NCBI GenBank assembly: GCA_964486045.1
Contig: CAZALK010000002.1
Location: forward strand, 32,001-96,000
DNA: 64,000 nt
Origin: an uncultured archaeon
GTDB lineage: Archaea; Asgardarchaeota; Lokiarchaeia; Sigyniarchaeales; SOKP01
Direction: 5' to 3'
The notes below the pieces were generated by a model. The model made no database searches and was not told where the DNA came from. It saw only the letters and a program-made list of their open reading frames with translations. Positions 13,913 through 64,000 of the stretch are shown one piece after another (position 1 is the first letter of the stretch; each line of letters starts with the position of its first letter). The translations under genes and the position numbers were made by a program.

Positions 13913-15112
13913 TCAAACTATTTTTATTTCATCATCTGTCAAATAGCATGCAGGATCTGGACCCCAAACATCACCTACTAATGCTAACGATCTAACTCTC
14001 GAGCCACCCTTACAAATTTCAAAAAATCGACAATTATTCACTGAACATCTTCCTTTAATATACTGTGCTTTATTTTTTAATCCCTTCATTATTGGGTCTG
14101 AAGTATCCTCCCATATCTCACGAAAAGATCTGTCCTTTATATTACCAAATGAATAGTCGTTCCAAAATTGATTAGCATGAACATTTCCAAGAAAATCTAT
14201 TGAAGCAATAGTCTCACCTGTGCCATCTCCCCCATTTCTTTTTAAAAGTTCATACGCCCATTCTGCTTTGGCTGGATCTTCTTTATGTAAGTAATGATAG
14301 AGAAAGCCCGCATCACAATAATTACCAACAAGCAGAGATTCAATAGGATAACCTTTTTTATGGTGCATTTTAGTTAATTCAAAATACTTTGTAATTGCGT
14401 TCCTCCATTGGTTAGGTGGTAGATCGCTATTTAAAATGTCCCTTCCTCTTCCGGAATAATCAAGGTGATACACACAACATCTATTTACTCCAATATCTCG
14501 AAGTTTCAGCAACACACCTGATAAATCCAAATAATTATATTTAGTGAGTGTAAATCTTAATCCAGTTTTAATATCAGCATTTAATGAATTTCTCATTCCA
14601 TTAATTGCTAATTTGAATGCACCTCTTACACCTCTAAATTTATCATTTATTTCAGCTAAACCATCTAAAGAAACACCGATATATTTAACACCCGCTTTTT
14701 TGGCAGTTAAAGCATTCTCCTTGGAAATAAGTGTCCCATTTGTCGAAATGACAGGTCTTAAATTTAATCCATCCGCATATTCAATTAATTCAAATAAATC
14801 CTTTCTCATGAAAGGTTCTCCACCCGAAAATAGGACAACTGGACATCCATAATTTGCTATGCTTTCTAATAGTGCTTTACCTTCTTCTGTACTCAACTCA
14901 CCTTCAATAGGTTTAGTTGACGCGGAAGCATAACAATGAACACATTTCAAATTACACTGTCTAGTGGAATTCCATACGACTATAGGCTTGTTTGATTTTA
15001 CATCATGTTTATTATAACTAATCTGCTTTGGACTGCCTACGTATGCTGCCCTGTATCTTAATCCATCGGACTCGCTAAGAGCCCCCAATAAAAGTTTTGA
15101 TACTCCAATCAT
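13913..15112 (-). CDS. ahbC: Fe-coproporphyrin III synthase (radical SAM/SPASM, NirJ1-like)
   Basis: Starts MIGVSKLL (start moved to ATG 15112); PIVVWNSTRQCNLKCVHCY; last gene of the haem operon. Confidence 0.85.
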   Translation of the reverse strand: MIGVSKLLLGALSESDGLRYRAAYVGSPKQISYNKHDVKSNKPIVVWNSTRQCNLKCVHCYASASTKPIEGELSTEEGKALLESIANYGCPVVLFSGGEPFMRKDLFELIEYADGLNLRPVISTNGTLISKENALTAKKAGVKYIGVSLDGLAEINDKFRGVRGAFKLAINGMRNSLNADIKTGLRFTLTKYNYLDLSGVLLKLRDIGVNRCCVYHLDYSGRGRDILNSDLPPNQWRNAITKYFELTKMHHKKGYPIESLLVGNYCDAGFLYHYLHKEDPAKAEWAYELLKRNGGDGTGETIASIDFLGNVHANQFWNDYSFGNIKDRSFREIWEDTSDPIMKGLKNKAQYIKGRCSVNNCRFFEICKGGSRVRSLALVGDVWGPDPACYLTDDEIKIV

Positions 15113-15117
15113 TAATT

Positions 15118-16554
15118 CTAACTCCATAGATAATTTAAATATGTGTTAAACATTCCTTGGAAAGTATACTCCCTTGCGGTTAAATGAGGGATCGAAAGAT
15201 GTTTAGAGGTTTCTGGTCCAATTGAAATGATTATAGGTTTTTCCAAGACTTTTTTATCTAACAGCTCAATACCTTTTGCACACGAAGCTGACATGACGAA
15301 GATCGCATCAGCATCTTTCACAATATTAGGATCTGCTGGCAGTGGTTTTATATCATATAAATAAACTGAGGAAACGATAAAAATTGATTTAAGCATATTT
15401 TTTAATTCATTTGTAGCTGCTGAAGATCGGAGTAAGAGAACCTTATCTCCTTTTTGAAGATTTGTTAAAATTTGCTTCCCTAGACCTTCAGAATTGTATT
15501 TTTTCCCCATATGAGCGTTAATTTGAAATTTTTCAAAAAGTAGATTTCTTGTTTTAGGGCCAATTGCGAAAACTTTTCCTTTGAAGGTACTTAAATCTAC
15601 CTTCTCACCAACCCTATTTACTCCTTCTACAGATGTGAATACGATTGCATTAAAATCATCTAATCTTGGAATATCAAATTTTCTGGGAACGACTTCTATA
15701 AGGGGCATAGATATTGATTCAATCTTATATGCTTTAAGCAATTTCTCACTTTCTTTTGAATGTTTTTTAGCACGTGCGATAACAATTTGCTTGTCTTTCA
15801 ATTCTTTTATTTTTCTTTCAAACCAATTTAATTTACTATGTAAATTTGTAATTACTCCTATAACGAAAATTGTGGGGGGTGTTATACCCTCCAGTCCTTC
15901 AGCTAATAGTCCTAACGTTGTAAGTTTTGTATTTTGTTTAAGCGTTGTTCCCCAGTTTATAGCAGCTACAGGAGTAGATTTCTTCCTTCCTACTTTTATG
16001 AGTTTTTGAGAAATTTCTTGAATTTTCGATGCCCCCATTAGAATAATAATGGTTTCTGGTAAAGCTGACCAATTAATTGCTGCTTTTGCTTTAGTTGATT
16101 CATGCCCCGTTAAGACTGCAAATACAGAATTATACTCTCTATGAGTAATTGGAATGCCGGCATATGCGGGTGCGGCAGAAAATGAAGATATACCAGGTAC
16201 TACTTCAAATTTAATGCTTGAAGCTTCACATAGTAAAGCCTCTTCTCCACCTCTACCAAAAATAAAAGGATCTCCCCCTTTAAGCCTTACTACTTTATAA
16301 TCACGACCATACGTTATAATCGCAGAATTAATTTCATTTTGTCTTTGTTGGGATGATATAGATTCACCGTCTCGTTTTCCCATATATATGATTTTACATT
16401 CTGCCTTCGCCCAATTTAGAATTTCTTCATTAATCAATCTATCATAAATAATAACTTCAGCTTCTTCAATTAAGCGTTTAGCTTTTAAGGTAACTAACTC
16501 CATATCACCAGGACCAGCACCAACTATATAAACAACCATGATTTTATTCATCAC
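15118..16554 (-). CDS. cobA-hemD: Uroporphyrinogen-III C-methyltransferase / uroporphyrinogen-III synthase fusion
   Basis: VGAGPGD and RLKGGDPFIFGRGGEE, followed by a HemD domain (IVFTS, AIGPKT, SIGPET). Confidence 0.92.
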   Translation of the reverse strand: MMNKIMVVYIVGAGPGDMELVTLKAKRLIEEAEVIIYDRLINEEILNWAKAECKIIYMGKRDGESISSQQRQNEINSAIITYGRDYKVVRLKGGDPFIFGRGGEEALLCEASSIKFEVVPGISSFSAAPAYAGIPITHREYNSVFAVLTGHESTKAKAAINWSALPETIIILMGASKIQEISQKLIKVGRKKSTPVAAINWGTTLKQNTKLTTLGLLAEGLEGITPPTIFVIGVITNLHSKLNWFERKIKELKDKQIVIARAKKHSKESEKLLKAYKIESISMPLIEVVPRKFDIPRLDDFNAIVFTSVEGVNRVGEKVDLSTFKGKVFAIGPKTRNLLFEKFQINAHMGKKYNSEGLGKQILTNLQKGDKVLLLRSSAATNELKNMLKSIFIVSSVYLYDIKPLPADPNIVKDADAIFVMSASCAKGIELLDKKVLEKPIIISIGPETSKHLSIPHLTAREYTFQGMFNTYLNYLWS

Positions 16555-17456
16555 TTTCTAATATTTTCAAGAATCTCATTACCACCCATAGATAAAAGGT
16601 TTTTGGCTAATTTAGAAGCTATTTTGACGGAATCTTGTATTTTTGAATTAAGCTTGTCCTTTATAAACTGTTTACCGTCGATTGATGAAATAAATCCAAG
16701 TATCTCATATGTATCATTTTCAAAATTTAAATTAGAATAAGCTCCCGCAGGTACTTGACATCCTGCTTCTAGATTAGTTAAAAAAATTCTTTCAGCTTCA
16801 CATGCTATTTTCGAAGGAGGATCTTCTAATTTTGAGATAATTTTTAATACCTTTTTGTCGTCTTTTCTCGCAGTTATTCCCAAAGCGCCTTGACATACGG
16901 CTGGAATAAATTCTTTTGGGGGAAGAGGTGAATAATTATTATATCCTAGTCGGATTAATCCAGCTTCTGCGATTATGATTGCATCATATTGTTTTTCATT
17001 TAACTTCTTAAGTCTCGTATCAATATTCCCCCTTAGTTCAGCGACATTTAAATCTGGACGAAAATTGAGAATTTCAGCCCTCCTTCGAAGGCTTGAGGTT
17101 CCAATCTTTGCATTTTTCGGAATAGAATTTAGATTTTTATAAGTTCCTACTAAAGCATCATTAGCAGATTCTCTCTTAGGGATTGCTGCTATTATTAGTC
17201 CTTCGGGAAGATCTGTTGGTAGATCTTTAAGAGAGTGAACAGCAAAGTCAATTTCACCAGCAAGTAATGCTTGATCTAGCTCCTTTGTAAAAAAACCTTT
17301 ACCTTCAATTTTTGCAAGGGCTATATCAGTTATTTTATCACCTTTAGTTGAAATTTTATTTATTTGTACATCACAATCTAACTTATCTATAATTAATTTC
17401 GTCTGTACTAATGCTAACCTTGATCCTCGAGACCCTGCTATTAAAAGTTTCATCAA
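16551..17456 (-). CDS. hemC: Hydroxymethylbilane synthase
   Basis: GSRGSRLALVQ, KGFFTKEL, AVHSLKDLP, GTSSLRR and GCQVP. Confidence 0.97.
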   Translation of the reverse strand: MMKLLIAGSRGSRLALVQTKLIIDKLDCDVQINKISTKGDKITDIALAKIEGKGFFTKELDQALLAGEIDFAVHSLKDLPTDLPEGLIIAAIPKRESANDALVGTYKNLNSIPKNAKIGTSSLRRRAEILNFRPDLNVAELRGNIDTRLKKLNEKQYDAIIIAEAGLIRLGYNNYSPLPPKEFIPAVCQGALGITARKDDKKVLKIISKLEDPPSKIACEAERIFLTNLEAGCQVPAGAYSNLNFENDTYEILGFISSIDGKQFIKDKLNSKIQDSVKIASKLAKNLLSMGGNEILENIRK

Positions 17457-17463
17457 ATTTGCC

Positions 17464-18729
17464 TCAGCTTTGATTGGAGGGTAGATCTCTATATCCCATG
17501 AATAGGTTTGTAAATTTTTCTAATTCTTCTGCATCCAACGGATTTTCTCGAACTTGTGATAAAAAGTTATGCATTAATTTCTTCATTAAAGATTTTGAAA
17601 AACCTTCAAGAACTTGCTTGATCTTAGGCTCAATAACACCATCTAACATATAAATAGCTTTTTCAAGTTCTTTATTTCTTATAGATTCTGTATATTTATT
17701 GAGATTTGCAAAATATTTTTCAATATGCAACTGCCGTAATTTTTTCATAAAATTCTCATTTTCTCTGTTAATTATCTTCTCAACTTTGCACACTTCGCTC
17801 AAACGAGCTTCTAGGTTCTTATTTGCGATTTCTCTAAGATCTTTATATGAATAGATATGAACATTATTGATTTTTGAAGCTGATGGATCAATATCTCGAG
17901 GTACTGCAATATCCATAAAATATAATGGGTGTTTACGATAACGCATTACTTTTTTTACAAGTTTTTTTTTAATTAACACTTTAGGAGCTGATGTCGCTGA
18001 TAATACCACATCCACAGATTTGAGAATCTCTGGTAAATAATAGAAATCTGCTGCTTGAGCGTTAAATAGTTTACAAAAGTTGAATAGCTTTTCAGGTGTG
18101 CGACCTATTACTATCATATTAGAAATCTCGAATTCTTTAATATACTCCGCTATTAAACTTGCCATTTTACCATTTCCAAATAAAAGAATCTTCTTGTCTT
18201 TTAATGGGCAAACCTTATTAATCATATCTACCGCTATGGAAGCGATTGATACTTTCCCTTTAGAAATTTGAGTTTCAGATCTTACAAGTTTTCCAAGCTT
18301 AATAGCTTTCTCAAAAGCCAATTCAAGCACACTATCTGTAAAACCATGCTTTTTTGAATAATTATAAGCCTCCTTACATTGAGAGAGAATTTGATTTTCA
18401 CCTACAACCATACTCTCTATAGAAGTTACAACTCTAAATAAATGATTCAGGGTATCAAGATATGTCTTTACTGATAAGAAATTCTTGATATCTTCTCCAA
18501 ATCTTGTGAGCAAAACATTTTTTGCTTGTTTTAATCCTTCAGATTCGGTGTTATCGGTAAAATTGATCTCGAATCGATTACAAGTTTGAATAATTATTAC
18601 GGCATTAATGTTTTTCTTGCTAAGTAACATTTTATGTAGATCTAATTTATCAGACTCGTTTAAAAAAAACCTATCCGGAAATCCTACTGGTGGATTTTTA
18701 TAATCTATACTAATGCTTGCTAAGTACAT
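17464..18729 (-). CDS. hemA: Glutamyl-tRNA reductase
   Basis: TCNRFE, SMVVGENQILSQ and DIAVPRDI. Confidence 0.96.
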   Translation of the reverse strand: MYLASISIDYKNPPVGFPDRFFLNESDKLDLHKMLLSKKNINAVIIIQTCNRFEINFTDNTESEGLKQAKNVLLTRFGEDIKNFLSVKTYLDTLNHLFRVVTSIESMVVGENQILSQCKEAYNYSKKHGFTDSVLELAFEKAIKLGKLVRSETQISKGKVSIASIAVDMINKVCPLKDKKILLFGNGKMASLIAEYIKEFEISNMIVIGRTPEKLFNFCKLFNAQAADFYYLPEILKSVDVVLSATSAPKVLIKKKLVKKVMRYRKHPLYFMDIAVPRDIDPSASKINNVHIYSYKDLREIANKNLEARLSEVCKVEKIINRENENFMKKLRQLHIEKYFANLNKYTESIRNKELEKAIYMLDGVIEPKIKQVLEGFSKSLMKKLMHNFLSQVRENPLDAEELEKFTNLFMGYRDLPSNQS

Positions 18730-19831
18730 TATATATCTCCAAAGCTTTGATTTTTGCTAATTCTATTTCTTTTTTTAAAATATGAGACTGGACTTCTGTA
18801 TTCTCATAGATTTTTGATAATACACGATTTTTTTCTTCGATTCCAACTAATTCATTCCGAAATGGAGAGAGCAAGCCCAACCAATCTGTCCAAGGATCAG
18901 TTATTGAATCCAAATATTCTCTTAATTTTTTAGATAGAAATGGACATTTACCTCCTGTCGAAATTGTTATGTTAAGATCTCCATTTTTAGATAATGCTGG
19001 AAAAATTACAGATGAAAGTGCTGGATTATCGACAACATTTACAAGGATATTATGAGTTCTGCAATAATCTGAAATTTTTGAATTTAATTGTGAGTCCGAA
19101 AGTGCCCCTACAACCAAAGATGTATTTTTTGGAATATATTTATAAAATTTTTTTGAATCTAAGTTAATTAAATGAAGTTTAACATATTTTGGTAGATCTA
19201 AAGATTCCTTTGAAATAACTGAAATATTCTTGGTGAATTTTGAAAGAAAATTAACTTTCCTTCTCCCAACTAGGCCTCCTCCAAAGATTATAACAGGTCC
19301 AGATAAGTTCAGAACAATAGGAAGTTGGAATGTACTTTCAATTATTTTTTCATGGTCTTGATGTTCTCTTTTGGGAATTTCGAATGAAATTTTTTTAAAT
19401 TCACGTGTTGAAAACATATGCTTGTATTCAGTTATTCCAAGATCTTCCATAATCTCTTTAGCTCGCGTTATTACCTCTTCTTTAGTTTCGGAATGTATCA
19501 TAAAGAAGAGGTTATAATCCCAACCTACTCGGTAATAACAGTGGGTGACTCCTTCGATCGTTGCAATTTTTTCTCCAATTTCATCTACTAAATCTTCAGC
19601 AATGTTTGCGACAACCATCAAGTTTGCACTAATTCCTACCTTTCTATGATTAACTGAAATTCCAAACCTTCTAATAAGCCCTCTGTCGAGTAAATCCTTA
19701 CAAATATCTATTACTTTTTCTTCCTTCATCCCTAAACGTTTTGCTATTTCTGCAAAAGGTTCTGAGACAAAAGGTAACCTCTGGACTTCCGCCAGAACGG
19801 CTAATTCTTCATCTGAGATCAAATTTAACAC
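18710..19831 (-). CDS. Siroheme decarboxylase subunit (AhbB/NirH-like) fused to precorrin-2 dehydrogenase (SirC/Met8-like)
   Basis: N-terminal PFAEIA...VTHCYYR..WDYNLFFMIH...EFKKISF; C-terminal FGGGLVGRRK, NVVDNP and ISTGGKCPFLS. The start may be TTG near 19822. Confidence 0.85.
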   Translation of the reverse strand: MLNLISDEELAVLAEVQRLPFVSEPFAEIAKRLGMKEEKVIDICKDLLDRGLIRRFGISVNHRKVGISANLMVVANIAEDLVDEIGEKIATIEGVTHCYYRVGWDYNLFFMIHSETKEEVITRAKEIMEDLGITEYKHMFSTREFKKISFEIPKREHQDHEKIIESTFQLPIVLNLSGPVIIFGGGLVGRRKVNFLSKFTKNISVISKESLDLPKYVKLHLINLDSKKFYKYIPKNTSLVVGALSDSQLNSKISDYCRTHNILVNVVDNPALSSVIFPALSKNGDLNITISTGGKCPFLSKKLREYLDSITDPWTDWLGLLSPFRNELVGIEEKNRVLSKIYENTEVQSHILKKEIELAKIKALEIYNVLSKH

Positions 19832-20267
19832 CTATTTTATATATTTTTTCTGCGGGAAGACGAATAACTTTACTTTGTAATTTATTCTCAATTTCTTCAA
19901 GGCTAGCAAACAAAGTTTCCTCATCTTGCTCTGTTAAAGTGAACCAAATATTTGGAGTACCCTCTCTAAGATAATTATGAGTTACTCCCCGGTAAGAATT
20001 GATAATACTTGCGGCTTTTTCAATACATTCATCGGGAATAGAAACTGCTGCGAGTATTGATTTAAAACCGATTTTATTAGCAGCAATAATAGCTCCAACT
20101 TTACGAATCAAACCCTTCTCAGTAAGATTTTCTAGTCTTGAAATTACATTATTAGATTTCAAACCTAATCTCTTCGCAATATCATCATAAGGATGTCGAG
20201 ATAAGGGAAAATAGTTTTGCATTAAATTAATCAATTCTTTATCTGTTTTATCTAATCCTTCAGTCAT
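19809..20267 (-). CDS. ahbA: Siroheme decarboxylase alpha subunit
   Basis: QNYFPLSRHPY, GVTHNYLR, NIWFT and KIGVKFDL. Confidence 0.88.
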   Translation of the reverse strand: MTEGLDKTDKELINLMQNYFPLSRHPYDDIAKRLGLKSNNVISRLENLTEKGLIRKVGAIIAANKIGFKSILAAVSIPDECIEKAASIINSYRGVTHNYLREGTPNIWFTLTEQDEETLFASLEEIENKLQSKVIRLPAEKIYKIGVKFDLR

Positions 20268-20271
20268 TTTT

Positions 20272-21279
20272 TCACCTATTTAACTCAACATATTTAAATT
20301 TATACATGCACCAAGGTTCTTGTGCCATATAATCATCATTATAGAAATAAGCTCTTGCCCGACACCCACCACAGGTTTGTTTATATTCACAAATCCCACA
20401 TGCACCTGAATAATTCATAGTTCTTAGCTTATCTAAAATAGGATTTCTTTTCCAAATTTCACTAAATTTTTTTTCACGTATATTTCCTAGTTTTAAGGGC
20501 AAATAGGGGCAGGGCCATACATCTCCGTTTGGTATAATAGAAATATAAGATATTCCGGCAAGACACCCTCTTGAATATCTATGCATTGGGATATTTAGTT
20601 GTTCTGCTATTCTTTTGAAATGAGGGGCACATGTGGGTTTGATATCAAAATTTAATTCCTCTCGTTTTTTTAGTAATCTTCGGATTAATCTCTCATATTC
20701 AGCAGCACGCAGGGAACTTTCCTCTAAGTCTTTACCCCTTCCTGTGGGTACGAGAAAGAGAACATGATGTGATTTAGCACCCATTTCCTTGGCTAATTTA
20801 CATATTTTTTCTATCTCTTCAATATTAAAATTAAAAACTGTAGTATTAACTTGAAAGGGTAATCCTACTTCATTACAATTCCTCATAGCCTTTAATGACA
20901 TATCGTATGCTCCTTGAACTCCGCAAAAATTGTCGAGTCTTTCTTTATCAATCATATGAAGAGAAATAGCAACCGCTGCCCCTCCCGCTTGTTTAAGGCT
21001 TTTTGCTGTTCTTGAATCAAGATAATACCCATTTGTCCCATAAACGGGTCTAAGACCTAAAGAAAATGCGTACTCTGTCAATTCTAAAATATCTGAGCGC
21101 ATTAAAGGTTCACCCCCTGAAAAAACCATCAGTTTAAAGTTAGCTTTTGAGATCTCATCTAGAAGAGCAAACCCTTCTTCTGTAGTTAATTCATTTTGAA
21201 ATTCTTTTCCAGCATCTCGGTAACAGTGTTTACACTGGAGATTACATTTGTTGGTTACATTCCAGGAACATATATTCAT
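20272..21279 (-). CDS. ahbD: Haem b synthase (radical SAM/SPASM, NirJ2-like)
   Basis: SWNVTNKCNLQCKHCYR, FLVPTGRG, KPTCAPHF, GCLAG, PCPYL and CGGCRARA. Confidence 0.88.
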   Translation of the reverse strand: MNICSWNVTNKCNLQCKHCYRDAGKEFQNELTTEEGFALLDEISKANFKLMVFSGGEPLMRSDILELTEYAFSLGLRPVYGTNGYYLDSRTAKSLKQAGGAAVAISLHMIDKERLDNFCGVQGAYDMSLKAMRNCNEVGLPFQVNTTVFNFNIEEIEKICKLAKEMGAKSHHVLFLVPTGRGKDLEESSLRAAEYERLIRRLLKKREELNFDIKPTCAPHFKRIAEQLNIPMHRYSRGCLAGISYISIIPNGDVWPCPYLPLKLGNIREKKFSEIWKRNPILDKLRTMNYSGACGICEYKQTCGGCRARAYFYNDDYMAQEPWCMYKFKYVELNR

Positions 21280-21315
21280 GCTTTTTTAAACCTTATTTTG
21301 TATCCTATTATTTTT

Positions 21316-22611
21316 TTAACTTATTTTATTTAAAGCTACATCCATCGCCTCTATAGTGGATTGTATATCATCATCCGAATGAGCTATTGATAAGAAACAT
21401 GTTTCAAATTGAGAGGGAGGGATAAAAATATTATTATTTAACAATTCTAGTTGATAAGCTCCAAATTTATCTCTATCACATAGTTGAGCACTTTCATAAT
21501 TATCTACGATCTTGTCTGTCATAAAAATCTGATACATTGATGCTATGGAATTAACCTGAGCAGATATCTTTTTGTCTTCAATAAGGTTCTTTAATCCTTT
21601 TACAATTTTTAAACATTGCTCCCTAAGACGTTTATAGAGACTATCACCACCCTGTATTAGAATTTTGATGGTTGTTAATCCTGCTGTTACTGAGATAGGA
21701 TTCCCACTCAATGTACTTGCTTGATAAATCTTTCCAAGTGGGGAAATATTATCCATAATTTCCTTTCTACCTCCATAACACGCAAGAGGAAGTCCTCCAC
21801 CCATTATCTTTCCAAGGGTAGTTAGGTCAGGAGAAATCCCAAAAGTCTTTTGAGCTCCTCCCAAACCTAATCTAAAGCCGGTTATCACCTCATCAAAGAT
21901 TAGAAGAATTCCATCCTCTTCTGTTATTTTTCGAACCTCTTGAAGATATCCGGATTCTGGAAGAATTAAACCAGCATTACCAATAACAGGCTCTATTATA
22001 ACAGCTGCAATTTTCCCCTTGTTTTTATTGATTTCTCCACTCAAAGATTCAATATCATTATATGGCAAGACAATAGTATTCTTGGTAGTATCAGCAGGAA
22101 TCCCTAAAGAATTTGGAGCACCGAAAGTTGTAGCTCCAGAACCCGCTTTAACAAGGACATAATCATGTGCGCCATGGTAACACCCTTCAAATTTTATAAT
22201 TTTATCTCTTTTGGTAAATCCTCGAGCAACTCTTATTGCATGCATAGTAGCTTCAGTTCCTGAGTTTACTAGCCTTAATTTATCCATGGATTTATATAAT
22301 CTTGAAATTGTTTCAGCTATGGTTATTTCGAGTTCGGTAGGAGTACCATAAATAACTCCTTTGGATAATTGATTTTGAATTGATTCCATTACTCGTTGAT
22401 TGGCATGCCCTAATATTAACGGACCATATGCAAGACAATAATCAATATAGTAATTATTATCTACGTCATATAGTTTAGAACCTTCAGCTTTCAAAGTAAA
22501 AAAAGGAAATGGACTAAATGCTCGAACAGGACTATTTACACCCCCAGGCATAAGGTTTTTGGCTTTTTCATATAACTTTTTTGAGTTCTTTCTCACCTTT
22601 CTTTCAACCAC
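21316..22611 (-). CDS. hemL: Glutamate-1-semialdehyde 2,1-aminomutase
   Basis: PGGVNSPVRAF, NSGTEA, FEGCYHG, FDEVITGFR and GKIMGGG. Confidence 0.97.
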   Translation of the reverse strand: MVERKVRKNSKKLYEKAKNLMPGGVNSPVRAFSPFPFFTLKAEGSKLYDVDNNYYIDYCLAYGPLILGHANQRVMESIQNQLSKGVIYGTPTELEITIAETISRLYKSMDKLRLVNSGTEATMHAIRVARGFTKRDKIIKFEGCYHGAHDYVLVKAGSGATTFGAPNSLGIPADTTKNTIVLPYNDIESLSGEINKNKGKIAAVIIEPVIGNAGLILPESGYLQEVRKITEEDGILLIFDEVITGFRLGLGGAQKTFGISPDLTTLGKIMGGGLPLACYGGRKEIMDNISPLGKIYQASTLSGNPISVTAGLTTIKILIQGGDSLYKRLREQCLKIVKGLKNLIEDKKISAQVNSIASMYQIFMTDKIVDNYESAQLCDRDKFGAYQLELLNNNIFIPPSQFETCFLSIAHSDDDIQSTIEAMDVALNKIS

Positions 22612-23582: not shown

Positions 23583-23837
23583 TTTTGATCATTATTTCAT
23601 TGATTTTTATCGGATTCAATAATTATATTTTGATGATATGTAAGAAATTTATTGCTTTTTTTAATTACGCTACTTTTTTTACTGCTTCTAATTTTAAATA
23701 TCATCTTAAGATTTAATCAATTAATATAGGGCTTATCATAGATAACGAATAAATTTGTTTAAAAGTTTCGGTTTTTTAAAAAAAAAAGCTGATCTGTTAC
23801 GAATTCAGTAACATTATAATGAATTAATCTCTATAAA

Positions 23838-54600: not shown

Positions 54601-55513
54601 CAAAAAAAACGGAATTAAGGGTTGCTTTGGAAAAATTATCAGATCTCAAGACGACTTAGATAATGTTGTCTGTGTTTATTATAAAGAAAATCCTAAAATT
54701 ACTGGTCAAGATAAATTAGTAATGTTTTTAATTTGCGATGCAATCGAAATTGAACAAAGACGATGGCAAGTACAACAAGATTTAGAAAAACAAAACATTA
54801 CCTTAAATAAAATGAACCATTTGAAAACTGAGTTATTTTCGAGGACGTCTCATGAATTAAAAACTCCTTTGATATCAATTAAAGGCTTTACTGAACTTTT
54901 GCTAACACTCCATAAGTCTAAATTAGATACTGAAATGATATCAATTTTAGAAGAAATAAAAGAAGGCAGTAAACGTCTAGAAAAAACTATCAATTTGCTC
55001 CTTGAAGGTACGAAATTAGAAGCAGAACAATTAGAATTGAATCTTAGGGACGATGATTTAGCATTTCTAATAAAATTTTGCGTTAAGGAATTAAAGGGAC
55101 TCGCAACGCTTAGAAATCAAAATGTATCAATTAACTTACATGATGAATTAAAGACCGAATTCGACAAGGAAAGAATTTATGAGGTTATGTCAAATTTACT
55201 TCTTAATTCAATCAAGTATACACCACCAGGGGGAGTAATCTCAATTTTCTCTGAATCAAATGATAATTTTTATATAATTTCAATAAAAGACAACGGAATA
55301 GGATTTACAGAAGAAGAAAAAACCCAAGTTTTTAAGCAATTTGGAAAAATTGAACGTTACGGTCAAGGATGGGATGTTGCTATAGAAGGAACCGGTCTTG
55401 GGCTTTATATTACTAAAAAATTAGTTGAATTACATGGTGGAAAAATTTGGCTTGAATCGGAGGGAAGAAATAAAGGAAGTACATTCAAATTTTCCCTTCC
55501 AAGGAGAAATTGA
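51602..55513 (+). CDS. Soluble multi-PAS sensor histidine kinase (about 7 PAS, GAF-like, HisKA, HATPase)
   Basis: Repeated DIT/ESEEKYR linkers, SHELKTPL, NSIKYT, DNGIG and GTGLGL; no TM segment. Confidence 0.93.
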   Translation: MCIIMISKKKNFFENSDNFISLITEVTNDLLVVTQTDYNFKIQFINDCIFLERLGYSRNSIEETSFLNLIYLDDVEKTVNYLKNNINSTAQSQEIRIKSMKDKFIWVEITAKKFTYGATDEQILINLRDLTKQKEIEGKLKESKQKFEIFNERYQNLFKNMFVGFAYHKIIVNKENKPIDYEFLEANPAFEKLTGLKVDEIVGKTVREILPGIENDPTDWIGKYGKVALSGIPITFESYAEPLDQWFSITAYSPKNEYFAVIFTNITKHKKAEYELKESENKFRTLFDNVGDSIIIVDLDSNILEVNKTACKHLGYSKDELLKMTPMDLVTPEYAVLILSRIKELTQKGSAFYESITVSKDGEIRPVEISSKIINYKNEKAVLSVIRDITERNRAKEKLKESEEKYRLISENANDMIVVLNDKFEYEYLNENMHKHLLGYSKNELLGKTQLHLIHPDDLKQTIIATSRILRKGKGSHQVRFLHKNGSYKWLEITGKTFFDSRGDKKVLAISRDITDRKEVAKKLEESEEKYRSLFENMNVGFAYHEVLVDDENKPIDYKYIEVNPAFEKLTSLKKEDLIGKTVTQVLPGIKNDPADWIGKFGNVGLTGIPLNIEEYSEPIKKWYKVSGYSPKRRFFAVTFTDITDQKEVESRIRESEAKYHDLFETSPLGVILTDLKGDIIECNSAIEDITGYPIEKFIGKNIRDLSIYYENGLKVLLEGFKDLLNQNKLEYVEFQIKHRNNRLRWVQLKSRIVKRKEESFILSVVNDISTQKTAEEALKESEKKYRDLLDSSSIGVMEIDVINNRISYINPRLLAIIGYKKEELTGVAIRDKIIHPNDLSKLIPSSEETDLEFRIIDKYGNLKWLNGKKIPHFDENKAIVSVRFWLDDITEKKMYEELIYELNINFLNFTADIRNNIELLLNTGLKLLNGDLILYAHKNSSDGEENYQLISSDNESLVYTPEDFFENLFISEIFKEEHDFPQSYFDVDKKKYARTDPFLKKNGIKGCFGKIIRSQDDLDNVVCVYYKENPKITGQDKLVMFLICDAIEIEQRRWQVQQDLEKQNITLNKMNHLKTELFSRTSHELKTPLISIKGFTELLLTLHKSKLDTEMISILEEIKEGSKRLEKTINLLLEGTKLEAEQLELNLRDDDLAFLIKFCVKELKGLATLRNQNVSINLHDELKTEFDKERIYEVMSNLLLNSIKYTPPGGVISIFSESNDNFYIISIKDNGIGFTEEEKTQVFKQFGKIERYGQGWDVAIEGTGLGLYITKKLVELHGGKIWLESEGRNKGSTFKFSLPRRN

Positions 55514-56391: not shown

Positions 56392-57303
56392 ATGAAAAAG
56401 AGAATCATAGGAATATTATTTTTTTTTATAAGTGCCGTTACACTACTTTTCGTTCTAAACGCAACCGCAATCCCTCCTTATGGAAATGATCACAATTCTG
56501 CTTCATGTCATAATTCTCTCTCTGGAGCGTATACAATTACAACAAATACAACAGATATAATTACAGCAGATAATTCTTCAGTTATTAATATTGAAATAAC
56601 AGCCACAGGATCAAATTTATTTGTACAGGCTCGATTTAATGCAAAAGATAATGATGAGTTCGTAATTACAACTCTTAAACTAGAAGATAACACCGGATAT
56701 GATACAAATCCTAGTTTAAATGCAATGACAGTTGTTTTTAATATCACTACTCCAGCAACTGATGCTTATTACACTCTTTTTATCATAGCTGGAGATGACT
56801 TAGCTGGTCGGCCAGAGTTTGCTTATGCAAATATTGGGTTTAGTATAGGCGGAGTTCTTCCTCCGACAATTCCTATTGATTACATTGGAATAATTTTCTC
56901 TCACACAGCTAATTTTATTATAGGCGGAATAGCTATAATTACTCTCGCAGTTGGTACTGTCTTGTATTTAGTTAATCAAGAAAAATTCACTAAATCTCAT
57001 GGTCTTCTAGCTGGTACATCATTAATTTTCACGACAATCAACATAGTAGCAATAATTCCGTATTTAGCAAAACAGGGAGTCTTACTAGGTGTGGTTCAGT
57101 CATTACCCCTAACCTTTTTGCATATCATTTTAGGGACAATAGGATATGCAGCGGGAATCATAGCTTTTATAGCTGGGTTAAGCGGACATAGATCGAGAAT
57201 ATACGGTTTTATTGCTTTAGGTTGTTGGAGTTTTAATTATATACAAGGTTTTCTATCACTAATGGCTGCATTAAGTATAGTTCCAGCGGGGTTTATATTA
57301 TGA
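56392..57303 (+). CDS. Exported HNSASCH-motif domain plus 4-TM His-containing membrane domain (paralog of 44586..45476)
   Basis: Signal peptide; DHNSASCH at 56491-56511; shared ITATG.NLFVQ, TTPATD.YYT, KSHG and HIILG. Confidence 0.7.
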   Translation: MKKRIIGILFFFISAVTLLFVLNATAIPPYGNDHNSASCHNSLSGAYTITTNTTDIITADNSSVINIEITATGSNLFVQARFNAKDNDEFVITTLKLEDNTGYDTNPSLNAMTVVFNITTPATDAYYTLFIIAGDDLAGRPEFAYANIGFSIGGVLPPTIPIDYIGIIFSHTANFIIGGIAIITLAVGTVLYLVNQEKFTKSHGLLAGTSLIFTTINIVAIIPYLAKQGVLLGVVQSLPLTFLHIILGTIGYAAGIIAFIAGLSGHRSRIYGFIALGCWSFNYIQGFLSLMAALSIVPAGFIL

Positions 57304-58781
57304 GTAAAACGAAATTTAAACTTTCAAGGAATCTCTCTGATATAAAGGCATCCTATTCAAAAATCAAAGAAGCAGGAATTGACTTCTCTCGCACATTATC
57401 CGAAAGGATTAGTTCAAGCGGTGATACAACTGGAACCCCATTTTATCATTTTCGGTGGAAACAACACTTTTTAGCTGATTATATAGCGTATCCTAAAAAC
57501 GATGAAGATATTATGAAGATAGTTCAATTGGCAAATGAATATACTATTTCAGTTACACCTAGAGGTGCTGGTAGCTGTTACTATGGATCTGGATCACCGA
57601 CTAATGGTGGTGTTGTAATTGATATGAAACGAATGAAAGAATGTCATATCAATAGAGATAACATGACCGCTACCGTTCAAACTGGTATCTGTTTCTCCCG
57701 ATTAATGGACCTTCTCGACGAACAGGATTTAGAATTAGGGTGTTATCCAACAAGCGCTCTTACAACAACCTTAGGTGGTTGGATTGGAACGGGGGGAGTA
57801 ATGGGTATTGGAACTTTACAAAATGGGCCTTTCTCAGATCAAATGGTTTCAATGAAAGTGGTAAGTCCAACAGGGGATTTAAAAGAATATGACAAAAAAG
57901 TTGATTTTGATCAATTTTTTGGTAGTAATGGAATTTTTGGAATAGTGACTGAAGTTGTATTAAAAGTCTTTCCTAAATCGAGAAAAATTGTTCCTCTTCT
58001 GCTTGGGTTTGAATCTCTGGGGGAATTATTAATGTCTATCAAAGATATACTTTCTAAAACAGACCCTTTTGTATTAAGGTTTTCAGATAAATATCATGAA
58101 TACAATTGTTCTGGTCTAAGTAGACACTCGCATTATATTTTTCTTTTATACAATGGGAGAAACAGGGATTTGGATGAAGATGTGAAAGAAGCTTTAAGGT
58201 TAGTAGAAAACTATAACGGAACTTTTTTAGGTAACAAGTTTTCAAACAGTACTTGGGATGATTATTTAAAACATGAATTAAAAATTAAACTTGAAACACC
58301 TGTCCAAATGCTTCAGCAAATTTATATTAATTTTGAAAAGACTGAATCCATTATTACCTATTTCGAAAAGTTGATAAAGAAAAATAAATTAAACCATTGC
58401 TTTTATGGGCTTATCAATAGAGATAATAATGTTAGACTTTGTCTTTATACCCCAACCGACAACGAATATTGGATGCATTTTATAGCAAGCAAGGCTGTTA
58501 TCAGTAGGGCTGTTAAATATGCATATAAGCTTGGTGGAAGAATTTATACTTACGGTCTTCAAAATACGATTTATTTACACAAATTCGAGAAAAATAAACT
58601 GAAGAGATTAAAAGAAAAAAAAGCAGAAGTTGATCCTAACTATATATTAAATCCACTTAAAATTGTGAAGTCAAAGATAAGTTTCTGGCGCGTCAATAGC
58701 ATGTTCGAGCTAATGTTGCGTTGGAGAAGGTGGGCTGTAAGACTAGGTCTTGCTAAAGAAATTCTAGTTCTAGATATATAA
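57300..58781 (+). CDS. FAD-binding oxidoreductase (paralog of 45508..46995)
   Basis: VTPRGAGS, GGVVID, GSNGIFG and VDPNYILNP; ATGA overlap with the upstream gene. Confidence 0.82.
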   Translation: MSKTKFKLSRNLSDIKASYSKIKEAGIDFSRTLSERISSSGDTTGTPFYHFRWKQHFLADYIAYPKNDEDIMKIVQLANEYTISVTPRGAGSCYYGSGSPTNGGVVIDMKRMKECHINRDNMTATVQTGICFSRLMDLLDEQDLELGCYPTSALTTTLGGWIGTGGVMGIGTLQNGPFSDQMVSMKVVSPTGDLKEYDKKVDFDQFFGSNGIFGIVTEVVLKVFPKSRKIVPLLLGFESLGELLMSIKDILSKTDPFVLRFSDKYHEYNCSGLSRHSHYIFLLYNGRNRDLDEDVKEALRLVENYNGTFLGNKFSNSTWDDYLKHELKIKLETPVQMLQQIYINFEKTESIITYFEKLIKKNKLNHCFYGLINRDNNVRLCLYTPTDNEYWMHFIASKAVISRAVKYAYKLGGRIYTYGLQNTIYLHKFEKNKLKRLKEKKAEVDPNYILNPLKIVKSKISFWRVNSMFELMLRWRRWAVRLGLAKEILVLDI

Positions 58782-58804
58782 AATAAAGGGAAATTGAGCG
58801 AAAA

Positions 58805-60091
58805 ATGTCAAAAACAGAAGAAAAAAAAATACCAAAAACTAAGAAAAAAAAAGCAAAAAAGAAAATTTCAAAACGCTATATAAATTCAGTAGTTGAGGCT
58901 AGTAGTCCTTCTGAACAACGAATAAAATTTAAGGAATATTCAAATAATGACCTGATAAAAGCTTGTGCTAATTGCTCGATGTGCAGAGATGAATGCCCTA
59001 CTTATGTATCTCGAGAAGCAGAATCCTTTTATGCTGGTGGAAGAATGAGAATACTTAGAACGATTGTAGAACGTAATTTACCCATCACTGATGACTTTGT
59101 TGAAGCAATGTTTTTATGTACAACATGTAAACAATGCGAAGACATCTGTCCTATAGGTGTAAAATATGTGGATTTGATCGAAGAATTAAGAGCTGAACTT
59201 GTTCAAGAAGGGATAGGTCCTTACGGGAATCTAATCGGTTTTTCCAAAAGTATTTGTCTTAATAATAACCCGTACGGGGAACCCCCTTCTAAAAGAGCAG
59301 ATTGGGTTGAAGAAGGAATAAATGTAATTGAAAAAGGACCTTATGCTTATTTTGTTGGGTGTACATCTTCCTATAGAACACAAAGTGCAGCTGTAAGTAC
59401 TGGTAAGATTCTTACCAAAATTCTTGGAGGGATTGTATTACTTGGACCTGAAGAGGTTTGTTGCGGGAGCCCAATAATTCGGACTGGGCAAATTGACTTT
59501 CAATTAGAAATTGAAGAAGGAAAGTTTGTTCCTTTTACAGTTGAGGATTACATTACACGAAATATTGAAAATATCATAAAGAAGGAGGTAGAAGAAGTTA
59601 TCTTTTCTTGTTCTGGATGTTATAAAACCTCCACAGATGATTGGCCGAAATATTTTAGTAAAGACATTCCTTTTAAAAGAACTCATATATCACAATTCTT
59701 AGCTCGTTTAGTTGAACAAAACAAGATCCAATTCAAACCATTTAACAAAAAAGTCACATATCATGACCCTTGCCATCTAGGAAGACATCGAAAAGTCTAC
59801 GATGATCCGAGAACGGTATTACAAGCAATCCCAGAACTAGAGTTTATTGAAATGAGGAAAAATCGTAATCGGTCCAGATGTTGTGGTGCTGGTGGTGGAG
59901 TAAAGGCAGGATTCGCTGCAGATGCATTAAGTATTGCGACGGTTAGAGTTCAAGAGGCAATTGATGCTGGAGCAGATATTTTAGCTACTTCTTGTGTATT
60001 TTGCAAATATAACTTCTTAGACGCTAAAAAGGAAATGGGTGCCGACATCGAAATATTAAATATAGAGGATATCGTAGTAGATCTTTTATGA
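58805..60091 (+). CDS. GlcF/HdrD-like Fe-S oxidoreductase (paralog of 47103..48449)
   Basis: CANCSMCRDECP, CTTCKQCEDICP, EVCCG, YHDPCHLGR and CCGAGGG. Confidence 0.9.
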   Translation: MSKTEEKKIPKTKKKKAKKKISKRYINSVVEASSPSEQRIKFKEYSNNDLIKACANCSMCRDECPTYVSREAESFYAGGRMRILRTIVERNLPITDDFVEAMFLCTTCKQCEDICPIGVKYVDLIEELRAELVQEGIGPYGNLIGFSKSICLNNNPYGEPPSKRADWVEEGINVIEKGPYAYFVGCTSSYRTQSAAVSTGKILTKILGGIVLLGPEEVCCGSPIIRTGQIDFQLEIEEGKFVPFTVEDYITRNIENIIKKEVEEVIFSCSGCYKTSTDDWPKYFSKDIPFKRTHISQFLARLVEQNKIQFKPFNKKVTYHDPCHLGRHRKVYDDPRTVLQAIPELEFIEMRKNRNRSRCCGAGGGVKAGFAADALSIATVRVQEAIDAGADILATSCVFCKYNFLDAKKEMGADIEILNIEDIVVDLL

Positions 60092-60950: not shown

Positions 60951-60955
60951 AAATC

Positions 60956-61911: not shown

Positions 61912-63924
61912 ATGGCAGAATCTAAAAAAGAAATAAAACTGACTGGTAGAGAAGATCCAAAAGTTGGTGTTTATGTTTGTTGGTGTGGAATAAACATTGG
62001 TGGTATTGTAGACGTTCCAAAACTCGTAGAATACGCCAAAACCTTACCCAATGTCGTTGAAGCTAAGGATTACAAGTTTTATTGCTCTGATATTGGACAA
62101 ACAATGATTCAAGAAGATATTAAGGCTGGTTTGATTAATCGTGTTGTTGTCGCCGCTTGTTCTCCAAGAATGCATGAACCTACATTCAGGACAGCGTGTC
62201 AGGAAGCTGGATTAAATAAATTTCTATTTGAACAAGCTAATATACGTGAGCACTGCACTTGGGTAAATGCAGATGATATTCCGGGAGCTACAAATATAGC
62301 TGAGGATCATATTAGAATAGCAGTGGCTAAAGCCTCAAATTTAATGCCTTTGGAGGTGACTAAGGTCAAGGTTGAACCATCTTGCCTTATAGTGGGTGCA
62401 GGAATATCTGGAATGAACGCCGCTTTGGATCTCGGAAATTCGGGTTATAAAGTCTATTTAGTGGAAAGAACATCTACTATAGGCGGACATATGGCCCAAT
62501 TAGATAAAACTTTCCCCACAATGGACTGCTCGGCTTGTACTATTACTCCTCGTATGACTGATGTATCCCGAAATCCTAATATAGAGTTATTAACATACTC
62601 AGAAGTAGAATCTATAGATGGTTTTGTAGGAAATTTTAATGTAAAAATAAAAAAAAAACCACATTATATTGACCAGAGCACATGCAATGGTTGCGGTGAT
62701 TGTGCTGAAGTATGCCCCATTGTATGTGGTAATGAATTTGATCTAGGAATGAAACCAAGAAAAGCCGCCTACATTCCTTTTCCACAAGCTGTTCCAGGCC
62801 AATATACTATAGATATGGATCATTGTATAGTATGCGGACTCTGTGCTGATGCTTGTGAACCTAGGTCTGTAAACTATGATGAAAAGCCAGAATTCATGGA
62901 AGTAAAAGTAGGCACTATAATTTTGGCAACTGGTTACGATGCTTTCGATCCTACTACTAAATTGAAGCAATATGGGTATGGAAAATATCCAAATGTTATT
63001 ACTGGTTTCCAAATGGAAAGACTTTTAAGTTCATTTGGACCGACGGAAGGCAAAATAAAAAGACCTTCAGATTTAAAAGAACCTAATACAGTGGTTTTTC
63101 TCCAATGTGTGGGTAGTCGAGATTTCTCAGGAAAAACTAATAAATATTGTTCAAGAGTTTGTTGCATGTATGCTACAAAACAAGCGCGTCAGTATAAGGA
63201 AAAGCATCCTGAAGCGAAAATTTATATTTTTTACATGGATATAAGAGCATTTGGTAAAGGCTATGAAGAATTCTATGAATCAGCTGGTAAAGATTACGGG
63301 GTTAAATACATTAGAGGTCGAATTGCCGAGGTTTTAGAGGATGAAAATCATGATATTCTTATACGAGCTGAAGATACTTTACTCCAACGACGAGTTGAAA
63401 TAAAAGTTGATATGTTAGTATTATCTGTAGGGTTAGAACCACGTAGCGATATGGAAGATGTAGCACGTAAATTTAATGTTCAAAGAACTGAAGACGGTTT
63501 TTTAATGGAAGCACATCCGAAGCTGCGTCCAGTTGACACGCTAACAGAGGGAATATTCTTGGCAGGAACAGTCCAAGGCCCAAAAGACATACCGGATGCA
63601 GTTGCTCAAGCAAAAGGTGCAGCATCAGGCGCAGCTACTTTAATGGCTCGAGGAGAAGTTGAGATCGAACCATACTATGCAAAAGTTCTTAATTATAAAT
63701 GTGCTGGCTGTAAAAGTTGTATCAGTCTATGTGCCTTTTCCGCTATAACATTCAATGAATTTGAAAAAGTTGCTGTTATTAACGAGATTCTTTGTAAAGG
63801 GTGTGGTACTTGTGTAGCAGCGTGTCCTTCGGATGCTATTGTTCAGAATCAATTTGGAGACATCCAAATCTTACCGATGATAGAGACCGCAATTCCACAA
63901 AAATCTAAAGCTGGAGGAGACTAA
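61912..63924 (+). CDS. hdrA: Heterodisulfide reductase subunit A (Cys form)
   Basis: GVYVCWCGINI, AACSPRMHE, NIREHC, KTFPTMDCSAC, QCVGSRD, CSRVCCMY and C-terminal ferredoxin motifs. Confidence 0.96.
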   Translation: MAESKKEIKLTGREDPKVGVYVCWCGINIGGIVDVPKLVEYAKTLPNVVEAKDYKFYCSDIGQTMIQEDIKAGLINRVVVAACSPRMHEPTFRTACQEAGLNKFLFEQANIREHCTWVNADDIPGATNIAEDHIRIAVAKASNLMPLEVTKVKVEPSCLIVGAGISGMNAALDLGNSGYKVYLVERTSTIGGHMAQLDKTFPTMDCSACTITPRMTDVSRNPNIELLTYSEVESIDGFVGNFNVKIKKKPHYIDQSTCNGCGDCAEVCPIVCGNEFDLGMKPRKAAYIPFPQAVPGQYTIDMDHCIVCGLCADACEPRSVNYDEKPEFMEVKVGTIILATGYDAFDPTTKLKQYGYGKYPNVITGFQMERLLSSFGPTEGKIKRPSDLKEPNTVVFLQCVGSRDFSGKTNKYCSRVCCMYATKQARQYKEKHPEAKIYIFYMDIRAFGKGYEEFYESAGKDYGVKYIRGRIAEVLEDENHDILIRAEDTLLQRRVEIKVDMLVLSVGLEPRSDMEDVARKFNVQRTEDGFLMEAHPKLRPVDTLTEGIFLAGTVQGPKDIPDAVAQAKGAASGAATLMARGEVEIEPYYAKVLNYKCAGCKSCISLCAFSAITFNEFEKVAVINEILCKGCGTCVAACPSDAIVQNQFGDIQILPMIETAIPQKSKAGGD

Positions 63925-63926
63925 AA

Positions 63927-64000
63927 CTGAGTAGCCAAGTAAGTTTTAAACCTTATATTTTAGGAATTTTTTGTAATTGGTGTTCGTATGCTGGAGCGGA
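63927..64000 (+). CDS. mvhD: Hydrogenase/Hdr-associated [2Fe-2S] subunit MvhD, 5' part (CTG start)
   Basis: Reads (M)SSQVSFKPYILGIFCNWCSYAGA; SD GGAGGA 8 nt upstream of the CTG. Confidence 0.88.
   Translation, partial: MSSQVSFKPYILGIFCNWCSYAGA

Follow-up and report, generated by a model that had tools for sequence, protein, structure and literature searches.

We analysed a stretch of 64,000 nucleotides from a Lokiarchaeial genome (hereafter the window), corresponding to positions 32001-96000 of contig C2 in the 5.18-Mb, 45-contig genome G000 (99% complete, 7.8% contamination). The window is AT-rich (G+C 28-35%) and encodes a cytochrome c maturation (Ccm) system, exported candidate haem proteins, cytoplasmic flavin and iron-sulfur (Fe-S) dehydrogenases, an hdrCBA-mvhD cluster and an apparently complete operon for haem b synthesis. 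A first-pass annotation had listed these gene groups, and Pfam and NCBIfam searches found all of them where it had placed them. The Lokiarchaeial origin it proposed also holds: the nearest named homologues belong to Lokiarchaeum sp. GC14_75 and to metagenome-assembled genomes (MAGs) labelled 'Promethearchaeota archaeon', and a contig from Loki's Castle sediment matches the window at 88% identity over 16.7 kb. The window joins two parts of different age, a native redox unit specific to Asgard archaea and an island of about 21 kb carrying the haem operon.

The native unit is built around the ccm genes, with exported proteins carrying a variant haem site (the CH proteins, named by length) and two dehydrogenase modules:

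36457-37122, plus strand: CH221, an exported protein with an H-x3-C-H site (HTAGCH), a beta-sandwich and a C-terminal membrane anchor
37256-37996, plus strand: ccmC (Pfam)
37993-38148, plus strand: candidate ccmD, 51 codons with a single transmembrane segment (conservation; weak Pfam match)
38161-38499, plus strand: ccmE (Pfam)
38507-39232, minus strand: ccmB (Pfam)
39248-39961, minus strand: ccmA (Pfam)
40095-41834, minus strand: ccmF (Pfam), with the WGxxWxWD motif
42156-42482, plus strand: 108-aa protein with two cysteines and a weak match to NF041239, 'CC/Se motif family (seleno)protein' (E 3e-4)
42512-43045, plus strand: TlpA-like thioredoxin (Pfam)
43103-43846, plus strand: CcdA (Pfam)
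44586-45476, plus strand: CH296, with an HSACH site, a beta-sandwich and four transmembrane helices with conserved histidines
45508-46995, plus strand: module 1 flavoprotein, GlcD-like (Pfam)
47103-48449, plus strand: module 1 CCG protein, with two [4Fe-4S] and two CCG domains (PF02754 twice and Fer4)
56392-57303, plus strand: CH303, with an H-x4-C-H site (HNSASCH); its closest named homologue is from Lokiarchaeum GC14_75 (64%)
57300-58781, plus strand: module 2 flavoprotein, GlcD-like, overlapping CH303 by 4 nucleotides
58805-60091, plus strand: module 2 CCG protein (PF02754 twice and Fer4)

The three CH proteins and the two EB_dh-domain proteins described below make up the five exported haem-protein candidates of the first-pass annotation. 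All five are present, but none contains the classical haem-c motif CxxCH, which is absent from all proteins of the window. Nor does the 5.18-Mb genome encode any exported CxxCH protein; its sole two signal-like open reading frames (ORFs) with one CxxCH are, judged from sequence, a zinc alcohol dehydrogenase-like protein and a zinc-ribbon membrane protein. Multihaem cytochromes, for which a search elsewhere in the genome had been suggested, are not there, the maximum being two CxxCH per ORF.

What the CH proteins have in place of CxxCH is a candidate haem site near the mature N-terminus, in which the second cysteine and the histidine are kept. CH296 and CH303 share one layout: a cleavable signal sequence, the haem site, a beta-sandwich (seen in the AlphaFold2 model of CH303) and four transmembrane helices. 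Fifteen homologues of CH303 all share C39, H40, H171, H203 and H244, and almost all share H34. In four homologues from a second Asgard family (f31), the variant-site position reads CSDCH, CGNCH, CSVCH and CGDCH. These proteins have the same architecture, lie in operons with flavoprotein and CCG genes, and stand beside their own CcmF. Taking both families together, the cysteine of the CH pair is found in 19/19 aligned sequences and the following histidine in 18/19. Because the f31 homologues read CxxCH there, the variant site appears to descend from, or share ancestry with, a bona fide haem-c site, and for the same reason the candidates are most likely one-thioether c-type cytochromes. The f31 lineage also has a seven-CxxCH cytochrome beside CcmF, together with CxxCH versions of the CH family (L023:13803-15194, L024:14057-15562); classical multihaem cytochromes thus exist in some Asgard archaea. 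By homology to a canonical haem-c site, and by adjacency to and co-occurrence with ccm, the window proteins fit the picture of c-type cytochromes. The 'surface cytochromes' of the first-pass annotation are non-classical, and their predicted haem binding derives from CxxCH relatives and genomic context.

The distribution of these genes links them to Ccm. We compared the window with 24 genus-mates, 40 close relatives, 133 other genomes of the family and 400 Asgard genomes, and ran a profile search over 185,579 species genomes. Ten of the 24 genus-mates have CcmF, and these are exactly the 10 with a CH296/CH303 homologue; 9 of the 10 also have CH221, and CH221 homologues adjoin ccmC in 9/10 ccm-positive genus-mates. 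Among the 400 Asgard genomes, 85 have CcmF; CcmF and a CH296 match occur together in 62, CcmF alone in 23, the match alone in 24 and neither in 291. Most of the match-alone genomes have only the four-helix membrane domain, and 17/23 of the CcmF-alone genomes come from one family, presumably with ordinary cytochromes. A single-family profile run over the species genomes found 23 loci, all in Asgard MAGs.

Gene order is conserved too. In four annotated genus-mate loci (G016, G024, G017, G227) it runs [HdrCB], [NiFe] hydrogenase, two 187-aa AsnC-like genes, CH221, ccmC-(D)-E, ccmBAF, a 955-aa exported protein with HGSCH, CH296, flavoprotein and CCG protein. The elements vary: HdrCB lies within the fetched stretch of 2/4 loci and the 955-aa gene is found in 2/4. 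This last gene, whose HGSCH is N-terminal, sits between ccmF and CH296 (L011:10931-13798, minus strand; L014:7976-10852, plus strand), where G000 has the 108-aa gene, TlpA and CcdA instead. That trio is 71-82% identical in the relative G022 (the 108-aa protein 82%). By coordinates, CH296 lies within about 200 nucleotides of ccmF in several more loci. Compared with genus-mates, CH296 is 54-62% identical, and the flavoprotein and CCG protein of module 1 are 77-82% identical. Synteny in relatives thus covers ccm, the cytochromes and one flavoprotein/CCG module, which falls short of the single co-inherited route from haem through cytochromes to Hdr that had been proposed.

Of the maturation genes listed by the first-pass annotation (ccmABCDEF, TlpA and CcdA), all but ccmD are identified by Pfam, and for ccmD there is a candidate. 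CcmA, B, C, E and F score above the Pfam gathering thresholds and are intact, at 58-75% identity among species. The ccmD candidate overlaps the ccmC stop by 4 nucleotides and is kept in five related loci; its best Pfam match is CcmD (E 0.009, below the cut-off). CcmH and CcmI were not seen in the window, and no genome-wide search was made for either. Archaeal CcmE is reported to have a universal CxxxY motif, whose cysteine is required in Methanosarcina, and archaea are reported to lack CcmD, CcmH and CcmI (PMC9084895). In five family loci (window 38161-38499, L011, L012, L014, L026), CcmE ends in LTQCS, with the cysteine kept and the tyrosine gone, while CcmE of the f31 lineage, whose clients have CxxCH, keeps CPSKY. 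Loss of the tyrosine in CcmE accompanies loss of the first cysteine in the clients.

Two flavin/Fe-S dehydrogenase modules had been proposed, and both are there, each with a membrane cytochrome, a GlcD-like flavoprotein and an HdrD-like Fe-S protein, and with dehydrogenase genes at 45508-48449 and 57300-60091. No signal peptide or transmembrane segment was found in the flavoproteins or the CCG proteins. In NCBIfam, the CCG proteins match the TfrB (best for both), TmcB, HmcF, DsrK and GlpC models, far below the family cut-offs. In CH303, to judge from the lysine/arginine-rich loops, H203 would lie on the cytoplasmic side of the membrane and H171 and H244 on its outer side, and the histidines of the four-helix anchor probably bind haem b. 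ESM Atlas searches with the anchor gave weak leads to DUF420 and b561, with scores of 0.81 at most. A third module lies on another contig of the genome (L016, G000:C5:152750-157580), with a CH221 paralogue (HGGCH) and a CH296-type protein with TIGCH and no leading histidine. In place of the flavoprotein/HdrD pair it has a 440-aa HdrC-like and a 302-aa HdrB-like protein. G022 carries two modules of this C5 type in tandem.

The cluster hdrCBA-mvhD follows module 2, with mvhD running past the end of the window:

60396 (start), plus strand: hdrC (Fer4)
60956 (start), plus strand: hdrB (CCG twice)
61912-63924, plus strand: hdrA (HdrA2 model 882 bits, below the cut-off of 1100)
about 63927-64364, plus strand: mvhD (PF02662, E 3e-36), with about 24 codons within the window

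A gap of 305 nucleotides separates hdrC from module 2, and the proposed wiring of the cytochromes to hdrCBA-mvhD comes down to this adjacency. Upstream of the FCNWCSYAGAD motif of mvhD there is no in-frame ATG, GTG or TTG, and an in-frame CTG lies nine nucleotides after GGAGG; a standard ORF call shortens mvhD by about 31 residues.

The remaining two exported candidates have the EB_dh haem domain, with a membrane protein encoded between them:

31718-32857, plus strand: EBdh1, EB_dh haem-domain surface protein with a C-M site (PF09459)
32984-34033, plus strand: polytopic membrane protein
34485-35732, plus strand: EBdh2, EB_dh haem-domain surface protein with a C-x3-C-H site, CATFCH (PF09459)

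PF09459 scores 76.3 bits on EBdh1 and 79.5 on EBdh2 against a cut-off of 33.3, and the genome has no other EB_dh genes. All or nearly all members of the EBdh2 family keep the Cys-His pair; the first position of C-x3-C-H is cysteine in some and glycine in others. Since an invariant cysteine precedes the predicted axial histidine or methionine, the haem may be covalently bound here as well. The AlphaFold2 model of EBdh2 (predicted local distance difference test score, pLDDT, 77.7) matched NxrC (7b04_C, E 1e-8) and EbdC (2ivf_C, E 3e-7) in Foldseek; a sequence search of the PDB with EBdh2 gave no match at E up to 1. The window has no molybdopterin gene, and eight PF00384 matches lie elsewhere in the genome. 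EB_dh genes occur in 1/40 relatives.

Left of the native unit lies the island (about 7.6-28.7 kb). It holds a sulfate-assimilation block (8160-13851), absent from the first-pass annotation, that directly adjoins the haem operon on the opposite strand:

8160-9326, plus strand: ATP sulfurylase (Pfam)
9363-10103, plus strand: PAPS reductase (Pfam)
10162-10941, plus strand: TauE (Pfam)
10978-11985, plus strand: PALP/CysK-like protein (Pfam)
12067-13569, plus strand: sirohaem-type sulfite reductase (Pfam)
13585-13851, plus strand: TusA (Pfam)
13913-15127, minus strand: AhbC/NirJ1-like radical S-adenosylmethionine (SAM) protein (NCBIfam best families, below equivalog cut-off)
15118-16554, minus strand: CobA-HemD fusion (TIGR01469, 269 bits against a cut-off of 185)
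16551-17456, minus strand: HemC (Pfam)
17464-18729, minus strand: HemA (Pfam)
18710-19831, minus strand: AhbB fused to a CysG-N-type precorrin-2 dehydrogenase/chelatase domain (NF040707, TIGR01470)
19809-20267, minus strand: AhbA-like protein with a NirDL-like pair of helix-turn-helix and AsnC_trans_reg2 domains (Pfam)
20272-21279, minus strand: AhbD/NirJ2-like radical SAM protein (NCBIfam best families, below equivalog cut-off)
21316-22611, minus strand: HemL (Pfam)
22593-23582, minus strand: HemB (Pfam)
23838-24299, minus strand: Lrp/AsnC regulator, upstream of the haem operon (Pfam)

The operon at 13913-23582 has genes or candidate genes for the whole route from Glu-tRNA through sirohaem to haem b that the first-pass annotation had named. 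The route to sirohaem is covered by the HemA, HemL, HemB, HemC and HemD domains, CobA and CysG-N, and sirohaem decarboxylase by AhbA/AhbB, where the fusion protein scores 152.5 bits on the AhbB model (cut-off 125) and 94 bits on TIGR01470 (cut-off 62). Both radical SAM proteins have their best matches below cut-off: AhbC 448 bits and NirJ1 433 bits (each against 650) for 13913-15127, and NirJ2 480 bits and AhbD 336 bits (each against 500) for 20272-21279. Since the upstream sulfite reductase is of the sirohaem type, sirohaem is needed locally, independent of haem.

The island has native flanks on both sides. To its left, the PALP gene at 6538-7467 has orthologues 70-79% identical in genus-mates. 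The right flank is syntenic with four genus-mates and begins with a divergent pair of regulators:

28731-29294, minus strand, and 29644-30207, plus strand: 187-aa AsnC-type helix-turn-helix proteins (Pfam)

These are 62-79% identical to the pairs flanking the ccm cluster in genus-mates. They end in a Cys-rich C-terminal CxxCxxC...CxxC tail and might regulate the locus in response to haem or redox state. Beyond this regulator pair, genus-mates have a [NiFe] hydrogenase large/small pair (L011:112-2731, L012:2332-4967, L026:3858-6491), followed by HdrCB genes in L012 and L026; in G000 the sulfur/haem island takes this place. The Loki's Castle contig (LAZR01001120.1) is collinear with window positions 12592-29298 and includes the right-hand island junction with the native regulator pair. 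A sister population at Loki's Castle thus carries the same arrangement, and this contig, together with the native flanks, rules out a chimeric assembly. Further metagenome HemB sequences are 87-94% identical; gene context was read for the LAZR contig.

Two further features lie outside the island:

4312-4421, minus strand: tRNA of 110 nucleotides, evidently intron-bearing (Rfam, 46 bits; ARAGORN reported no tRNA)
51602-55513, plus strand: multi-PAS histidine kinase of 1303 aa with at least four PAS domains (Pfam), between modules 1 and 2

The tRNA lies about 3 kb left of the island boundary. PAS domains are able to bind haem or flavin, and the kinase may belong to the cytochrome system.

Among the compared genomes, the island is found only in the G000 species and the near relative represented by the Loki's Castle contig. 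HemB was found in 0/40 close relatives, in 0/133 other genomes of the family and in 20/400 Asgard genomes; the AhbC-like protein is missing from the relatives tested, and sulfite reductase from 5/5 close genus-mates. The haem operon, standing with sulfate assimilation and missing from these relatives, has a different history from ccm and the cytochromes, against the single route that had been supposed. In the HemB tree, the window sequence falls in a clade with Asgard-labelled MAG sequences (support 98/96); Bathyarchaeia clades are its neighbours, and HemB of other Asgard families falls elsewhere. A bacterial origin of the operon is unsupported by this placement, and the pattern of HemB within the family would fit transfer and differential loss alike.

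CcmF without HemB is the rule among the 400 sampled Asgard genomes. CcmF against HemB stands at 27/133 vs 0/133 in the family of G000 (G000 left out), at 17/22 vs 1/22 in family f16 and at about 37 vs 1 in f31. As they lack HemB, the 27 CcmF-positive family genomes, and most CcmF-positive genomes of the two other families, are therefore expected to be tetrapyrrole auxotrophs. Cytochrome-bearing Asgard archaea may generally rely on external haem. In G000, cytochrome bd, haem-copper oxidase, NarI/HdrE-type cytochrome b (PF02665) and catalase were not found. With these classical haem enzymes missing, the recognisable haem clients are the proteins of the window and the third module on C5.

On balance we consider it probable that the window encodes a redox module that spans the membrane and faces outward, that a tailored Ccm system matures it, and that sirohaem and haem come from the island. 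In this reading the Ccm machinery is a streamlined System I (CcmABC(D)EF, together with TlpA and CcdA), and it would mature exported proteins whose haem-c site, H-x(2-4)-C-H or x-x-x-C-H, has no first cysteine. In CH296 and CH303 an outward haem domain would be fused to a four-helix anchor with conserved histidines, the anchor probably holding haem b. Their genes would be co-transcribed with those for the cytoplasmic GlcD-like flavoprotein and the HdrD/TfrB-like CCG protein, and the three products would form a small transmembrane complex linking oxidation of a cytoplasmic 2-hydroxyacid-type substrate to haems at the outer face. From those haems, electrons might go on to CH221, a monohaem protein anchored in the membrane, and to the EB_dh haem proteins (CbsA/NxrC-like), before reaching a soluble or partner-borne acceptor. 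The island, with sulfate assimilation and the full sirohaem and Ahb haem-b route, would make the organism self-sufficient in sirohaem for sulfite reductase and in haem for its cytochromes; family members with cytochromes would scavenge haem. The first-pass annotation had read the whole as a locus for supply and wiring. Cofactor synthesis, maturation and exported candidates do lie within 50 kb, along with cytochrome-dehydrogenase operons, but they do not form a single co-inherited unit. With cytochrome-type membrane proteins in operons with cytoplasmic flavin/Fe-S dehydrogenases, the architecture plausibly fits electron transfer across the membrane.

Several points weigh against this interpretation. 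Haem on these proteins is a prediction, and single-cysteine sites are very poor substrates of E. coli Ccm (PMC3268396). The haem-site loop of the CH303 AlphaFold2 model has pLDDT below 50. Fold searches with this model gave only generic immunoglobulin-like sandwiches and four-helix bundles, at Z of about 10, which is too low to carry meaning for helical bundles, and no fold identity was assigned. Each anchor has three conserved histidines, whereas two bis-His haems within one monomer would need more. A lone outer haem would make a short relay rather than a wire, given a genome without multihaem cytochromes. The suggested check for quinone synthesis returned no MqnA but five UbiA-family genes. 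As the haem operon adjoins sulfate-assimilation genes, it may have come to lie beside the cytochrome locus by chance, through where the island inserted. Finally, the related genomes are non-independent samples, and our co-occurrence counts are descriptive and overstate the weight of the association.

Electrons might instead flow inward. An external donor (reduced humics, partner cytochromes, reduced sulfur or iron species) would then feed the outer haems, the CCG protein and flavoprotein, and a cytoplasmic disulfide- or fumarate-type acceptor, as in HdrDE, thiol:fumarate reductase or DsrMK. The CCG proteins give some reason to think so, since their best match is TfrB and they also match DsrK, HmcF and TmcB, proteins fed from outside or from the membrane; HdrCBA-MvhD lies directly downstream, and HdrCB and a [NiFe] hydrogenase flank the ccm cluster in relatives. 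The flavoprotein, however, belongs to the GlcD/VAO family, typically substrate-oxidising dehydrogenases, though its model scores are all far below the family cut-offs. Fermentative syntrophs, on general grounds, would also need outlets rather than inlets for electrons. Sequence does not fix the direction, and we regard inward flow as unlikely, though as an alternative to be taken seriously.

A less probable alternative, which we doubt, is that the variant-motif proteins carry no haem at all. Ccm would be a relic or serve another use, the CH pair would be metal-binding or structural, and the haem operon would serve only sirohaem and a few unrecognised haem-b proteins. The missing CxxCH, the poor handling of single-cysteine sites by E. 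coli Ccm, and a CcmE without the tyrosine of the reportedly universal motif are what one would expect in that case, as is the retention of ccm without HemB in 27/133 other family genomes. Yet the CH pair is conserved at the exact CxxCH position across two Asgard families, Ccm and the CH proteins co-occur and adjoin, and the intact state and interspecies identity of the ccm genes argue for selection. AhbABCD, moreover, have no role in sirohaem synthesis and convert sirohaem to haem b (PMC3942049). We think it very improbable that the outer haems have a protective or sensory role, whether by reducing oxygen, peroxide or another oxidant at the cell surface or by signalling redox state to the PAS kinase, instead of disposing of electrons in an energy-linked way. 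Each outward CH domain does have one haem site with no multihaem chain, the kinase lies between the two modules, and catalase and terminal oxidases were not found. On the other side, there are three paralogous modules with dedicated dehydrogenases, the high conservation of the flavoprotein and CCG subunits suggests a core metabolic role, and peroxidase-type features were not found.

In the literature searched, there is no description of Lokiarchaeial c-type cytochromes, ccm genes or haem synthesis; one paper has a figure of gene clusters conserved near novel gene families from uncultivated taxa, in which ccmC/E/F appear (PMC10849945). If outward electron transfer through these proteins is real, a conserved set of motif-hidden cytochromes connected to cytoplasmic dehydrogenases would provide a further, direct route for electrons through haem, one that ordinary CxxCH screens miss. 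Cultured Lokiarchaeia are described as fermenters whose electrons go to partner cells in the form of hydrogen or formate, a picture on which models of eukaryote origins rest. One species of the family appears able to make its own haem, and its cytochrome-bearing relatives apparently make no tetrapyrrole, predicting haem scavenging as a dependency in Asgard consortia. As a wider proposal, to which we are drawn but only tentatively, a lineage of Lokiarchaeia may use a tailored Ccm (CcmE without the axial tyrosine, and a CcmD-like partner) to join haem to its targets by one thioether bond, possibly aided by the histidine that replaces the first cysteine. The targets would be the outward domains of a compact transmembrane dehydrogenase, giving a cytochrome-based electron outlet to the environment or a partner, and this species would additionally have acquired a whole haem pathway. 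The G000 organism and its Loki's Castle relative are the best targets for enrichment and biochemical tests.

Each part of the locus resembles a known system and departs from it. In the Ahb pathway of archaea and sulfate reducers, AhbABCD turn sirohaem into haem b (PMC3942049, PMC3004389). The window likewise has HemALBCD, CobA, a precorrin-2 dehydrogenase/chelatase, AhbA/B and two NirJ-like radical SAM proteins in one operon. It differs in that AhbB is fused to the CysG-N-type domain and that the AhbC- and AhbD-like proteins fall below the NCBIfam equivalog cut-offs; within its Lokiarchaeial family, the pathway was found only in G000. The maturation system is closest in content to CcmABCEF of Methanosarcina acetivorans (PMC9084895), sharing CcmA, B, C, E and F, a cysteine in place of the bacterial histidine in CcmE, and a locus in which no CcmH or CcmI is seen. 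Unlike that system, it has a CcmE without the tyrosine of CxxxY, a conserved CcmD-like small ORF and apparent substrates without the first cysteine. Haem-c sites with only the second cysteine and the axial histidine are known from the mitochondrial cytochromes c and c1 of Euglenozoa, (A/F)xxCH (PMC8262978). Those proteins, however, depend on another maturation system, not Ccm; in the present family histidine is the usual first residue, and the fold is a beta-sandwich rather than that of a class I cytochrome c.

EBdh1 and EBdh2 share with CbsA (cytochrome b558/566 of Sulfolobus), EbdC and NxrC an exported EB_dh haem domain with a C-terminal membrane anchor, and with CbsA/CbsB a polytopic membrane protein encoded next door. 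They have no molybdoenzyme partner in the locus, unlike EbdC and NxrC (gamma subunits of the type II dimethyl sulfoxide reductase family), and they reach 38 bits on the CbsA model, whose cut-off is 468. The invariant cysteine before the predicted axial histidine or methionine sets them apart from all three.

The dehydrogenase modules resemble TmcABCD, HmcABCDEF and DsrMKJOP of sulfate reducers and HdrDE of Methanosarcina, which also combine an outer-face haem protein, a membrane haem anchor and a cytoplasmic CCG Fe-S protein, though all matches of the CCG proteins to the Tmc, Hmc and DsrMK models are far below the family cut-offs. In the window, the outer haem domain and the anchor are one polypeptide of 300 aa, and the anchor is a bundle of four transmembrane helices rather than NarI-type (the genome has no match to PF02665). 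Only one cysteine is present in the haem-c site, and a GlcD-like flavoprotein is added. By this analogy, the architecture is probably that of a Tmc/Hmc/DsrMK/HdrDE complex shrunk to three genes, with the GlcD-like dehydrogenase as the point of electron entry.

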